From Nanobdellota archaeon (GTDB taxonomy: Archaea > Nanobdellota > Nanobdellia > Woesearchaeales > JAGLXL01): 52,922 nt of DNA. Below, one piece after another: positions 13,901 to 20,302 of this stretch (position 1 is the stretch's first letter; each line of letters begins with the position of its first letter). Below the pieces are notes generated by a model. That model saw only the letters and a program-made list of their open reading frames with translations, was not told the origin of the DNA and ran no database searches. The stretch spans positions 1-52,922 of the forward strand of contig JBHPDN010000004.1 in the NCBI GenBank assembly GCA_042577865.1, in the 5' to 3' direction. Made by a program: the position numbers and the translations under genes.

Positions 13901-14100
13901 TTTCACCTAAGCTGGCAGCAGGCGAGAAGAAAGTATTTGAGGAATTAACTAAGTTGGTTGGGAATAAAAAGAAAGAAGATGTCAAAAAAGTTTTAGGCAA
14001 GAAAAAGGGAGAGGATATTTTCAATAGATTAGTCAATATTGTGGGCAAAAGAGAAGGAAAAGATGCCTTAAAAGAGTTGAAAAAATATGCTAAAAAATAA
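7933..14100 (+). CDS. Giant multidomain surface protein (about 2055 aa) with a C-terminal TM anchor and a repeat-bearing cytoplasmic tail
   Basis: The ORF is 7906..14100. ATG 7933 is preferred (MGKREVIWLLVGIFFLVLASSVLA|QQG) because the TATA at 7892-7900 ends 6 nt before ATG 7906. By eye it reads as a Cys-rich N-module, 3 carboxypeptidase-regulatory-like repeats and an FN3-like segment (LQLTWASP...YTYKIRA). These are followed by a second Cys-rich module, several Ig-like modules, TSP3-like Ca-binding repeats, a TM at 13513-13584 and a basic tail. I count roughly 40 N-x-S/T sequons by eye. Confidence 0.9.
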   Translation: MGKREVIWLLVGIFFLVLASSVLAQQGCFTEPTYTSICTQVTRTNATSWCSNLCTNNQTCLNDCLTKYFFENHDCSIGVCSANAGWCTDVPACAQVNRPAECVDRTSFTNSSVPCQTGCCILTSGTTNQCGSPAWPLMTYQECVNKQNLYSGYRISVFDTSVTSSAACAQVCGQTIGAPGRISGYVVNSSGNGIGGASIEAFSIKTTSLANGSYTLTALPIGTAIVTGTANGYGQSVSSVTVSTGATTNHNITLPAASSGRIHGFVTSGGSPLGGALVSVSGADYSQISTQGDGSYSLDALNLGSYTATASASGYGSSSQQVSLTDDAIEINFSLSLSQQATITGLILDQYNRAVPLATVRITGPSNYTAYTNQNGVYTKIVFANDTSTSYSVSATKGGYNQSSIQTVSLIKNDVKTVNLNMTKLALGACADPNTLPVSNFNVNHLPGEKALQLTWASPCPEVTGYYINRTSGGQEVALAYIPATQALQFKDTGVSWNTTYTYKIRAFFDAAPRFSNTTNTNSITTGDAACEGPLRYNNGQYLQFCQGPFNRRICNANNKVVEPTDGTITNPVNCTALGNFRFCRGPDSLGKTSCSDATHCLTSPGPGGVWVTRNSCYGSSSVPYPNYCYFEPSTPFNFCYSCSALPTKSCYDYASSDACGTNNCLPGKSCTWWVSPSNVGYCYEPGYAGTDQCSRCQVGCTQDVCDKLGDCYANSANTACLRCSLPPQPCGSYTTPQECDGGQAPTFVNDVLVASQDRCGYERCLYQSGSCGKDGDGDGNFECLDPNKVSPAEQSTCQRDRTPPVTKILPFGFISVNNATGNITFQGNDSFGMQKVVYCIDKTNTCSPSASLNYPSGTGVKTVQLNLATDNQLRQAHSQHGPGTYYLRFYSLDKYYNRENVQSRTLNVDLDAPVFTLKSCNVLTNATSGSTIRCQIATSEMVTCSDRLDTYNVVSGFTPYGAFPNQRTNSEIIDYTGLPDALYKYEINCTDDYGNLVTWGPPGITVQAQAGVNRVFPPRALNASSFRFQVYTPQIASCRLMNGTTVIESFSPSAGNNHTSSQHTFTPNFYYPNYWADCGSVGSVSLDFSVDRLGPVTRARLVSGGTQAIKSGSGWVATLTNTTAVDFVCTDQPTTISGGSAGFGCNTTKWCLTNGSSCTPNRIDAVPSVTADVTLCYYSNDSGGYQETSTNCGQIQIRPSFGINIVSPSHGVSNQPEFDLEINIPTVATDTCKWQPNVQSWIFNQITNPKYIFTPVTGSSSNYKIVNFSSQVTGFPNSFSRVPVYIACNSTTGMVSPIERFEIVYDPTPPVITSASFNPNPIVQGSSTTLSVVTDDNTVCKIGKGIPSIQFDDYDRNDFKTTHTHTIYISAPGDDNKTHYWNVSCENEAGNFSSITTAAFAVDLSAMGVIVSTSPSGASKNTNINLNVITNKAATCSYKPSNAYIPMANVGGVNHSKSLASNLSQGRYSYPVRCQFAQHYVDSSINFAIDLSAPKMIEVDDGNYSCGLDEINPNFEAEDNISSVVGYNYQILELSGTTVLYSDNVSRANPRIDDLNLTLNKNYFLKVKAKDEVGNWGTAKSSNGFKATAANYSGCREQRAPIISLVQNATATGIKVTVKCNDDTGCIGLSYGTSASSICNASTSYVGPVLVTETSYFCAEARDVSNNKGTKQVQVIISDTDTDGILNQFDQCPGTSLGKVVDENGCSASQLNTDSDEDGLPDDWEIQYSAEDCSFDPQQNDTDDDGILDGDEDYDGDGLSNYREYQQNGDPCLVKDRDGILDSWRLQYFGCIDCANAEASADPDNDGLTNLQEYNLKDTYGSSTHPNNPDTDGDGYQDKEEVDNDWDPTKFSIPGEGTPILAWIFLILGILMVLGGVGYVLILKKGKTPKPRPVYPIRVAPRPRPVPRPRVVRQPAVPPERVKIQELVAKRKAEREKEKRTKRREAFEPFVSGDRKLPKVKKIIQQKEKPVFEKLTAVAKHYDDKRKEVSPKLAAGEKKVFEELTKLVGNKKKEDVKKVLGKKKGEDIFNRLVNIVGKREGKDALKELKKYAKK
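8470..9201 (+). repeat. Three tandem carboxypeptidase-regulatory-like (CarboxypepD_reg-type) beta-sandwich domains at protein level
   Basis: GRISGYVVNSSGNGIGGASIEA...NGSYTL..LPIGT..V..TANGYG, then GRIHGFVTSGGSPLGGALVSV...DGSYSLDALNLGSYTATASASGYG, then ATITGLILDQYNRAVPLATVRI...NGVYT...YSVSATKGGYN. Confidence 0.65.
12970..13480 (+). repeat. Thrombospondin type-3-like acidic Ca-binding repeats (D-x-D-x-D-G-x-x-D) at protein level
   Basis: DTDTDGILNQFDQCPG, DSDEDGLPDDWE, DTDDDGILDGDEDYDGDGLSNYREY, DPDNDGLTNLQEY, DTDGDGYQDKEE. Confidence 0.65.
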
Positions 14101-18400: not shown

Positions 18401-20302
18401 ATGATAAATAAAAAAGGGTTGATTAGTGGTGTAAAGTTTGCAGCTGGTTTAGTGGTAGCGATGATGGTGGTGGCTTTATTTGCTTTTTTTATTTATAGAA
18501 TTGGATCTGGACTTGAAGGGGAAGGAAAACATGATTTAGCTTTGGGCAACTTTGAAAAATTAGTTGATGAGGTTGATAAATTATTGAAGGGGTCAGCAAC
18601 TTATTCTTTTGATTATTATGTTTTGGGCGCTTTTCAATTGCCAGATAAATATATTGTAATTGGATTTCCAAAGAGTAAAGATTCGGTTTTGTATTTTGAC
18701 CCTGTGAAAAAACAAAATTGGATTGAGATGAGAAAACCTTGTCGAGGGACTGGCTGTTTGTGCCTTTACCATGAAGATAAGTTTGATGCTAGCCGACCAA
18801 ATGATTATATTGTCTGTCATAATTTTGCTGTTGATTTTATAGTGGCGGGAGTTGGAGTGAATGGTAGTTGGGGTAACCATTATTATAAAGATTACAAACC
18901 ACCTGAACCTTATGAAGATTTAAACAATATTTTTCAATTATCTCAAAGAGAGAAAAGAGCTATTAATTATGTTTACCTTGCTTTTTTTGGTAAGGTATCC
19001 AGTATTTCTGTCTCTAACTTGTATGAATTTTCCTCTCCTTTTATGAGTAATAGCTTTGGAATCCAAAATATTTATTTGGAAAAAATGGAGGTGGGTAATC
19101 AAACACTTTTTTTAATTCAACCAGATGGCAAGTGGAGAAAAAATTTAGTTGAAGCCCAGTTGGAAAATATAACTTTTATTCAAGAATTAAACAAAGATTG
19201 GAGTAAAATAAAATATAGGCCAATTTATTTAGAACAATTTAAGAAGCTGAGTTCCGGTGGTACTTTAGAAAGTCCAGTGCTGATTAATTTGAGAGAAGGC
19301 AACCTGTATAAATTAGCATACAGTGAGAAAGCTGGATATATTGGCTTCTATTGGGTTTTTGGTTCTGTTGGAGGCAGAGATTTGGCAACCACTTTTTGGT
19401 TAGTTGATAATAAAGATGAAGTGGTGGGGGAGAAGAAACTTTTGGAAATGACTGAGGCTGAGATGGAACCATTGCGCTTAGAAGCAGCTAATTGTGTGGG
19501 GTCAGGAAGAACTTGGGATGCAGAGAAAAGAATTTGTGAAGGTGAAATCCCTGTTAAGATTGTAGAAGCAGAAAATTTGTATGCCGAAGCCTATGCTTTA
19601 TTTGAAAATGGGGCTTATGATGAAGCCATTGCTAAGTTTGAAAAACTTAGACAAGAATATCCGGATAGTAGTGAAGTTTCTCCAGCACTTTATAATTTAG
19701 GTTTGAGTTATTTAAAGAGATTTGAAAAAAAATTAGATCCTAATATTGGCTATTCGGTAACAAGTATCAAAGAAAATGATGAAATCAATAAATACCCCAA
19801 TCTTTATGCCGATCTTTTAAAAACTATTGAAATCTGGAAAACATTGGCTAAAGATTATCCAGAAAGTAATTATTTCTTAACTAAAGCTAATGTTGAAAGT
19901 AACAAATATTTAAGTTGTGCTGATCCAAAAGAAGGGAAAAATGCATGCCACCAAAGTTGGGACTCAATGTTTACTCGATGTTGGTTTGATGATGGGAGCA
20001 GAAAAAGCAAATGGACTCCAGAGTGGCTACATGCTGATGTTTGTGTACCTTGTCAACAGATAACTGATAAAATGATGAGTAAAGAAGTATGCTTAGATAA
20101 TCCTTGTACTATAGTTGGTTGGTATGAAACCTATTGGGATGAATCAAAAGATGAATGTGCGGCCAAAATTCCAAGTACCTTTCCCTGCAGCCATTTCAAA
20201 ACCAAAGAACAATGTGAGAATGATCCTTGTTACTCTGAATTTGTTAAAATAAAAGAATGTTGTCATTGGGAATACAGTACTTGTATGGGAGAATTTGAAT
20301 AA
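18401..20302 (+). CDS. Prepilin-like N-terminus + TPR-like segment + Cys-rich C-terminal module, 633 aa
   Basis: MINKKG|LISGVKFAAGLVVAMMVVALFAFFIY. TPR-like segment AENLYAEAYALFENGAYDEAIAKFEKLRQEYPDSSEVSPALYNLGLSYL. The C-terminal roughly 130 aa holds many Cys (CADPKEGKNACHQ, CVPCQQ, CLDNPC, CENDPC, ECCHWEYSTC). Confidence 0.75.
   Translation: MINKKGLISGVKFAAGLVVAMMVVALFAFFIYRIGSGLEGEGKHDLALGNFEKLVDEVDKLLKGSATYSFDYYVLGAFQLPDKYIVIGFPKSKDSVLYFDPVKKQNWIEMRKPCRGTGCLCLYHEDKFDASRPNDYIVCHNFAVDFIVAGVGVNGSWGNHYYKDYKPPEPYEDLNNIFQLSQREKRAINYVYLAFFGKVSSISVSNLYEFSSPFMSNSFGIQNIYLEKMEVGNQTLFLIQPDGKWRKNLVEAQLENITFIQELNKDWSKIKYRPIYLEQFKKLSSGGTLESPVLINLREGNLYKLAYSEKAGYIGFYWVFGSVGGRDLATTFWLVDNKDEVVGEKKLLEMTEAEMEPLRLEAANCVGSGRTWDAEKRICEGEIPVKIVEAENLYAEAYALFENGAYDEAIAKFEKLRQEYPDSSEVSPALYNLGLSYLKRFEKKLDPNIGYSVTSIKENDEINKYPNLYADLLKTIEIWKTLAKDYPESNYFLTKANVESNKYLSCADPKEGKNACHQSWDSMFTRCWFDDGSRKSKWTPEWLHADVCVPCQQITDKMMSKEVCLDNPCTIVGWYETYWDESKDECAAKIPSTFPCSHFKTKEQCENDPCYSEFVKIKECCHWEYSTCMGEFE

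Follow-up and report, generated by a model that had tools for sequence, protein, structure and literature searches.

A lineage-wide string of pilin-like genes in a Woesearchaeota-type archaeon that probably supplies subunits of a pilus-like attachment structure

The genes described here lie on a stretch of 52,922 nucleotides (nt), called the window throughout, which is contig 4 (JBHPDN010000004.1 of assembly GCA_042577865.1) of a Nanobdellota archaeon genome of 0.87 Mb that is 88% complete. Nine consecutive genes, g1 to g9, were found between positions 14087 and 20302, and together they probably supply subunits of a pilus-like attachment structure. The window also carries archaeal housekeeping genes for RNase P p30, RadA, RPA, ribosomal protein S2 and an STT3/AglB oligosaccharyltransferase, and the public records that contain relatives of g2 are labelled Candidatus Woesearchaeota, Nanoarchaeota or Pacearchaeota; the genes thus come from a tiny uncultured DPANN archaeon of the Woesearchaeota type. 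The nine open reading frames (ORFs) are given below with the length of each product in amino acids (aa) and its leader, in which a slash marks the predicted cut site.

14087..14659, plus strand: g1, 190 aa, leader MLKNKKA/QTIGQVFIY, first of a conserved quartet (g1-g4)
14661..15734, plus strand: g2, 357 aa, leader MRKKKG/QISIGFHW, largest member of the quartet, with four invariant Cys
15737..16216, plus strand: g3, 159 aa, leader MKSKKG/QMRMMETMAILFVFF
16200..16679, plus strand: g4, 159 aa, TTG start, leader (M)KFTRKG/QMEIIGLVII, six Cys
16676..16801, plus strand: g5, mini-ORF of 41 aa, MNKKG/DAWILNIG..., consisting of a leader, one hydrophobic helix and a short tail
16806..17414, plus strand: g6, 202 aa, leader MKKG/GIRTFLVGVII, member of a Cys-rich family called C
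17411..17542, plus strand: g7, mini-ORF of 43 aa, MKKYG/QVRPWLIGLVIAL..., C-terminus RFW
17544..18398, plus strand: g8, 284 aa, leader MASG/KISIRAV, second member of the C family
18401..20302, plus strand: g9, 633 aa, leader MINKKG/LISGV, with a conserved N-terminal domain, one TPR unit (residues ~390-426) and a Cys-rich C-terminus

A first, sequence-only reading of the window had described near-zero spacing at nine junctions in this string, and all nine were recovered from the raw sequence and the ORF list. The g1 ATG at 14087 lies within the end of the giant upstream gene gA (7906-14100), giving an overlap of 14 nt. Gaps of 1 nt separate g1 (stop 14659) from g2 (ATG 14661) and g7 (stop 17542) from g8 (ATG 17544), gaps of 2 nt separate g2 (stop 15734) from g3 (ATG 15737) and g8 (stop 18398) from g9 (ATG 18401), and a gap of 4 nt separates g5 (stop 16801) from g6 (ATG 16806). 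The TTG of g4 at 16200 sits 17 nt inside g3, which ends at 16216, and the g4/g5 and g6/g7 junctions consist of ATGA, at 16676 and 17411 respectively. This spacing is tighter than the norm of the genome, yet unexceptional: by a crude gene call, 37% of same-strand neighbour pairs genome-wide lie within -20 to +4 nt, and nine such genes in a row are therefore a tight operon and not an anomaly. Shine-Dalgarno-like motifs were located upstream of g4 (GGAG, 9 nt), g5 (AGGT, 9 nt), g6 (AGGT) and g7 (GGAGG, 7 nt), and the remaining starts among g1-g9 showed only 3-4-nt matches to such a motif. Near-zero spacing combined with ribosome-binding motifs at some starts only suggests that g1-g9 are translationally coupled.

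For g4, the leader junction RKG/Q had been said to be kept only if translation begins at TTG. This proved correct: position 16200 is the first possible start in the frame, and the next, an ATG at 16224, would delete KFTRKGQ. The same residues are conserved as protein in the closest relative, where they read MWKFTRKGQ behind an ATG start. Furthermore, TTG starts occur in five g4 orthologues, and the 159-aa product was likewise recorded by the gene caller behind the public protein collection.

All nine products had been called prepilin-like, and eight of the nine have the corresponding N-terminus, a basic leader of the form K/R-(x)-G/A followed by a hydrophobic helix; g8 is atypical. In seven products the leader is clear, with a short basic stretch that ends in K-G or K-A directly before the helix, and in g7 (K-K-Y-G) the K is placed at -3. 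Orthologues of g8 start with KKG or KKA leaders, such as MNKKAQ or ..TKKGL. To describe the cleavage site across the lineage, logos were built from orthologues gathered from 100 related loci, with 40-86 sequences per family. In g1, g3, g4 and the small pilins encoded farther downstream, the logos show K or R at -3 and -2, Ala, Ser or Gly at -1, and Gln at +1 in 92-100% of sequences. The g1 orthologues follow K-K-[ASG]/Q (Q in 93%) and then x-x-G-Q-[IV]-F-I-Y, in which Q+5 and the subsequent F-I-Y are fixed; g2 orthologues share a conserved block E-I-Q-F-N-W; the 86 g3 orthologues have Q+1 in 100% and E+6 in 96%; and Q+1, E+3 and G+6 are invariant in the 74 of 76 g4 family sequences that match the motif. 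The N-terminus of the small pilins reads K-K-[GAS]/Q-G-[IL]-S-[IL]-N, with Ala+11 in 100%. As read from these alignments, the conserved junction is the pattern of an archaeal class III signal peptide, and Gln+1 is a hallmark of EppA-type (Epd) pilins, which is partly established knowledge (PMC13705601). The opening residues MKSKKG are shared by three genes of the locus, those starting at 15737, 26979 and 27584.

These motifs bear on an alternative in which g1-g9 encode ordinary signal-anchored (type II) or Sec-secreted envelope proteins that form a surface or S-layer-associated complex with the giant protein, without a cut by prepilin peptidase and without any link to a type IV filament ATPase. 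A plain membrane anchor needs neither the K-K-[GAS]-Q junction, which is near-invariant here, nor fixed polar residues in the helix, and the conservation of both argues against it; such acidic or polar positions, fixed in the first part of the helix, recur among 70-90 orthologues in four unrelated families. We consider such envelope proteins an unlikely explanation, and the findings that speak in their favour are taken up below, together with the evidence on filament assembly.

Conservation of the string was assessed in 55 related loci with at least 9 kb of sequence downstream of g2. The quartet g1-g4 was found in 48-55 of the 55 loci and was never duplicated, and gA precedes g1 in 46 of them. 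A single copy of g2 is present in 53 of 61 relatives, and its profile matches 268 of the 301 phylum members sampled, as a rule with one match each and with other orders of the class included. Orthologues of g1 occur in 19 of 20 and in 80 of 100 related loci, and those of g3 in 94 of 100. Among the 120 listed of the 132 g4 homologues found, none has a Pfam domain, and wherever a name is given it is "hypothetical protein". A first survey by tblastn had made g5-g9 appear lineage-specific, whereas g1-g4 and gA were seen in nearly every locus. This view was rejected, because the scarcity of g5-g9 was due to the low sensitivity of the search: iterative profiles stripped of transmembrane (TM) segments found the C family in 46 of the 55 loci and the N-terminal domain of g9 in 39. 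None of the members is thus lineage-specific. The g9 profile (residues 41-340) matched 45 ORFs, which are distributed over 42 loci and located between the C family and a family termed h5; g9 itself matches TPR_6 and TPR_2.

The sequence-only reading had further seen in the string the layout of a minor-pilin set of fixed stoichiometry with more members than classical systems. The larger membership was not borne out, as the invariant single-copy core comprises exactly four genes, g1-g4, to which the nine add a Cys-rich family in two copies, a pair of mini-ORFs and a protein with a TPR tail. A minor-pilin role and a fixed stoichiometry may be proposed for the core from its layout.

The two copies of the Cys-rich family, g6 and g8, had been named as paralogues on the strength of a shared, ordered Cys pattern. 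Compared directly by BLASTP, they align with E = 0.3, although the alignment does place the Cys residues as described. A profile made from the TM-stripped soluble part of g8 and its relatives, with the other sequences of the window excluded, matched g6 with E = 1.8e-12 and 5e-13; paralogy that is missing from the pairwise comparison is therefore evident at the profile level, where g6 and g8 fall into one family. The g8 soluble-domain profile also matched 89 ORFs in related loci, and two tandem copies of the C family are present in 20 of the 55 loci. Pairwise BLASTP among the proteins of the locus detected almost no similarity outside the helices, and an iterative search without helix trimming drifted through the hydrophobic helix to 192 matches and was not used.

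Mini-ORFs built like g5 and g7, in which one helix follows a pilin-type leader, were counted in the 100 loci plus the window, and 98 were found on the cluster strand versus 26 on the opposite strand. Around the 53 C-family blocks that have room on both sides, a mini-ORF lies just upstream in 34 and just downstream in 34, and the C-termini recur, with N-A-F-x-P upstream of the C block and aromatic-Gly ends downstream. Judged by their own C-termini, g5 is similar to the mini-ORFs found upstream, and g7, with its final RFW, to those found downstream. It could be argued that the 41-43-aa ORFs (16676-16801 and 17411-17542) are chance frames in spacers, which would leave a set of seven members. Products of this size are too short for homology searches, with tblastn giving one weak match for g7 that overlaps a small-pilin gene, and hydrophobic AT-rich sequence readily yields such frames, as the 26 opposite-strand cases from 100 loci illustrate. 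However, the excess on the cluster strand, the positions beside the C blocks and the recurring C-terminal motifs all speak against chance, both mini-ORFs of the window are ATGA-coupled with AGGT or GGAGG at 7-9 nt, and an uninterrupted string would be broken by spacers of 126 and 129 nt if they were removed. Chance frames are therefore a very improbable explanation, and the mini-ORFs beside the C family are taken, from their sequence and placement, to be genuine.

The string g1-g9 is only the middle part of a conserved locus of ~20 pilin-like genes that spans 5661-27979 (~22 kb). The other features of the locus and its borders are as follows.

5661..7886, plus strand: g0, 741 aa, leader ..KNKGG/QITMFILLG, the true start of the gene string, upstream of g1
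7906..14100, plus strand: gA, a giant Cys-rich surface protein of 2064 aa; overlaps g1
20303-22435, minus strand: PD40/TolB-type repeat gene, 710 aa, convergent, its stop abutting the stop of g9
22544..27979, plus strand: second block of the locus, with small pilins, h5, h6 and others
24297-24689 and 24762-25016, plus strand: two small Cys-knot pilins, candidate major subunits
25497-26345, plus strand: member of the h5 family, in the second block
26335-26982, plus strand: member of the h6 family, in the second block
27584-27979, plus strand: counterpart of h8 in the window, 131 aa
28033: RPA gene, after the second block

The product of gA combines an ordinary signal peptide with CarboxypepD_reg repeats, and it has a TM helix at the C-terminus as well as a tail rich in K and E. 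Across the 55 loci the order is [g0], A, 1, 2, 3, 4, (small pilin), C, (C), (small pilin), 9, h5, h6 ... RPA, and the h5 and h6 families were each detected in ~40 loci with helix-trimmed iterative profiles. Families of the second block come directly after g4 and g9 in relatives. The window departs from the common order in two ways only: its small pilins stand after g9, and the locus is split after g9, by the convergent PD40/TolB-like gene (20303-22435) plus a 560-aa protein. The strongest ribosome-binding motif of the locus is a GAGGTGA located 5 nt before the small pilin at 24297. As far as profile searches tell, the families of the locus are specific to Woesearchaeota and related orders.

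Additional observations were made around these genes. In the closest relative, a homologue of the N-terminal half of the 20303-22435 product occupies the corresponding position (L024:10377-11771). A profile of the soluble domain of g0 detected paralogues elsewhere in the genome, at contigs 28:333-2552, 21:8608-10917 and 21:10938-11885, with E = 3e-65 to 7e-27. Outside the locus, the gene at 38504-41785 encodes a 1093-aa protein with an STT3/AglB domain and a C-terminal PpiC-type peptidyl-prolyl isomerase domain (E = 4.5e-30), and glycosyltransferases are encoded on both of its flanks.

Structures were predicted with AlphaFold2 for two of the nine proteins, g2 and g4. The g4 model, computed from a 76-sequence alignment, has a mean predicted local distance difference test score (pLDDT) of 91.6; its helices at residues 5-34 and 39-59 make up one N-terminal helix of ~55 residues that is kinked at 35-38, and two short helices and a four-stranded antiparallel sheet (111-158) follow. 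The g2 model (18-sequence alignment; pLDDT 84, predicted template modelling score (pTM) 0.80) has a helix at 14-58, then a beta-rich domain and a helical C-terminal part. A pilin-like alpha-beta fold after the N-terminal helix had been anticipated for these proteins, and in both models the predicted order of elements, helix and then sheet, is that of type IV pilins; neither model, however, matched a solved pilin, and the agreement with a pilin fold is thus a loose one.

The rest of the genome was then considered for an assembly machinery. One type IV filament ATPase is encoded, at contig 5:246-2519 (T2SSE, 55 bits), and it is FlaI-like (4e-37) and TadA-like. Its stop overlaps the start of a gene for a 728-aa hydrophobic protein, which is a putative platform by its position beside the ATPase. 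A second ATPase candidate with a weaker match, on contig 15, was rejected as a PIN-KH-domain ATPase and not a pilus motor. Orthologues of the filament ATPase are present in 61 of 61 relatives, with 49-76% identity for the best match per genome. In three relatives (G001:C4, G002:C67 and G007:C168) a single open frame of 1277-1782 aa contains the ATPase match as two segments separated by 1.5-3 kb, which looks like an intein or other large insertion. The genome also encodes one A24 peptidase, at contig 1:61042-61902, with a Peptidase_A24 match above the cut-off (E = 1e-15); it is FlaK-like, but below the NCBIfam cut-off. At a distance of 1.5 kb from the peptidase gene, contig 1:59079-59543 encodes on the minus strand a 154-aa protein that opens with MNKRGIGPLLATILLIVLAVAVGVVV, a pilin-type N-terminus of a style other than that of the window, and this protein has no Pfam match.

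An archaellum was rejected as an explanation, as neither archaellin nor stator matches were found. The genome thus keeps an A24 peptidase and a FlaI/TadA-type ATPase without an archaellin match, and both enzymes need substrates. In a survey of DPANN archaea, ATPase and platform genes were adjacent with pilins scattered elsewhere, and type IV filament genes were hard to classify (PMC13705601); the unlinked pilin locus described here agrees with that published layout.

Taken together, these data lead us to propose, with moderate confidence, that the nine genes encode class III signal-peptide (type IV pilin-like) proteins that are subunits of an Epd-like archaeal type IV filament. Several results weigh against this proposal. 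Pfam and NCBIfam scans of the nine proteins and their neighbours gave no pilin family model (Pilin_N, Class_IIIsignal or Arch_flagellin), and when 54 relatives of the small pilins were compared with pilin and archaellin models, one had a weak Arch_flagellin match. Foldseek searches of the PDB with the g2 and g4 models returned no match with E <= 0.001, and profile searches against PDB sequences returned chance-level matches only. The 728-aa protein matched no T2SSF model (PF00482), no other family and no PDB chain, and no homologue of the peptidase, ATPase or platform was found within 10 kb of the locus in 100 related loci. The g8 leader, M-A-S-G-K, has no basic residue before G. Finally, in a search of sequencing runs with the 720-nt stretch 24297-25016, at most 0.10 of the sampled words were present in any run listed, and none of the listed runs was of RNA.

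Some of these findings would equally suit the ordinary envelope proteins introduced above, namely the lack of matches to pilin family models or solved pilins, the assembly genes that are unlinked in every locus examined and the absence of a basic -2 residue from g8; to them can be added that the giant protein is equipped with an ordinary signal peptide and with a C-terminal anchor of its own. In addition to the junction and the fixed helix residues, two further points stand against that alternative, which are the retained peptidase and ATPase with their need for substrates and the g4 model, whose helix-loop-four-strand order is typical of pilins.

A different possibility is that the pilin-like proteins build a short pseudopilus or a bindosome-like stalk near the membrane, which would present, anchor or export the giant Cys-rich proteins and, in relatives, a cell-wall hydrolase fused to a pilin. 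The many different single-copy subunits and the giant surface proteins inside the operon are consistent with this, and archaeal class III signal peptides are known on binding proteins that do not form filaments (PMC13705601). Furthermore, in one relative (L030:14597-16276) the pilin-like protein at the h8 position, of 559 aa, carries an SLT lytic transglycosylase domain (E = 1e-29) and an fn3 domain. Set against a stalk are the small pilins, whose strongly conserved N-termini and own GAGGTGA motif fit a polymerising major subunit, and a search of the whole source genome, in which no SLT domain was found. We judge the stalk to be quite unlikely. In another relative (L026) the protein at the h8 position has 693 aa and a weak match to a 3D domain.

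For the proposed Epd-like filament, a course of assembly can be suggested. The precursor of each pilin-like protein would insert into the membrane, and the single A24 (FlaK/PibD-type) peptidase would cut behind the small residue that ends K-K-[G/A/S], so that Gln+1 becomes the new N-terminus. The FlaI/TadA-like ATPase, together with the membrane protein encoded beside it, would then power the lifting of the mature protein out of the membrane by its N-terminal helix. The quartet g1-g4 would most likely form a heteromeric priming or tip complex, which may associate with the giant protein encoded just upstream. Other low-abundance subunits or accessory parts could be supplied by the two Cys-rich paralogues (g6 and g8), the two helix-only mini-proteins (g5 and g7) and g9 with its TPR tail, whereas the bulk of the structure would most likely consist of the small Cys-knot pilins from the downstream block.

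Few uncultured archaea are as widespread as Woesearchaeota, whose genomes are reduced and which probably depend on partner cells. A broader idea, which we put forward tentatively and hold to be possible at most, is that g1-g4, the giant protein and the other pilin families of the locus form a lineage-defining host-contact organelle of Woesearchaeota and related Nanoarchaeia. Such an organelle would be a heteropolymer derived from a type IV filament, with a four-subunit tip that docks a giant adhesin in convergence with PilY1 and minor pilins, with families that have no relatives outside these archaea, and with a bacterial cell-wall hydrolase in some relatives. A near-universal, mostly single-copy set is kept here in genomes of <1 Mb that retain little that is dispensable, and its unannotated, lineage-wide pilin-like families stand in a fixed architecture; the interest of the locus would rise sharply if it did encode a true host-contact apparatus. 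The conserved core (giant protein, g1-g4, Cys-rich paralogues with mini-proteins, and small pilins) offers concrete targets for metaproteomics, complex prediction and cryo-tomography, and profile models derived from the locus could improve the annotation of thousands of genomes.

In bacteria, core minor pilins act with an adhesin in the set FimU-PilV-PilW-PilX with PilY1, and type II secretion has the corresponding set GspH-I-J-K. Like these, g1-g4 are four different, single-copy and coupled genes next to a gene for a very large surface protein or adhesin; g2 (357 aa) far exceeds the other members in size, as GspK and PilX do; and a fixed acidic residue near the mature N-terminus is found in some members only. 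Unlike them, the proteins of the window have no Pfam, NCBIfam, PDB-sequence or Foldseek similarity to bacterial minor pilins, the leader is of archaeal type, the acidic residue is at +3 or +6 instead of +5 and Gln+1 replaces Phe or Met, and the giant protein has its own membrane anchor and a cytoplasmic tail. The parallel with FimU-PilVWX-PilY1 and GspHIJK is, by this comparison, one of layout and not of ancestry. The Tad/Flp pili provide a second comparison, as the ATPase resembles TadA as well as FlaI, and the helix-only mini-subunits of ~40 residues recall Flp pilins. However, no Flp, TadE or TadF family matches were obtained, and the mini-ORFs of the window are flanked by large Cys-rich pilin-like proteins; their role as fibre subunits is putative.

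The Epd pilus of Methanococcus maripaludis is an archaeal type IV filament of 'system 1' with EppA-processed pilins and an 11-gene cluster, and Epd-type ('system 1') pilins have been reported in ~1990 DPANN genomes (PMC13705601). The present locus differs from it in that neither Class_IIIsignal/DUF361 nor any other pilin model is matched, in that the cluster holds no dedicated peptidase and the sole A24 peptidase is on another contig, and in that the ATPase and its membrane partner are unlinked, with one 728-aa candidate platform gene compared with two recognisable ones; giant Cys-rich proteins, moreover, lie inside the operon here. What the two have in common are class III signal peptides with Gln+1 and several different pilin-like genes in one cluster with adhesin-like partners, which in the case of Epd is co-transcribed. 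Very small pilins without a globular head are known from the Epd system, and the 41-43-aa products and an 84-aa small pilin of the window compare with these. Large sets of pilin-like genes, such as the one described here, are normal in archaea, and the Epd cluster with its 11 genes (PMC13705601) is an example.

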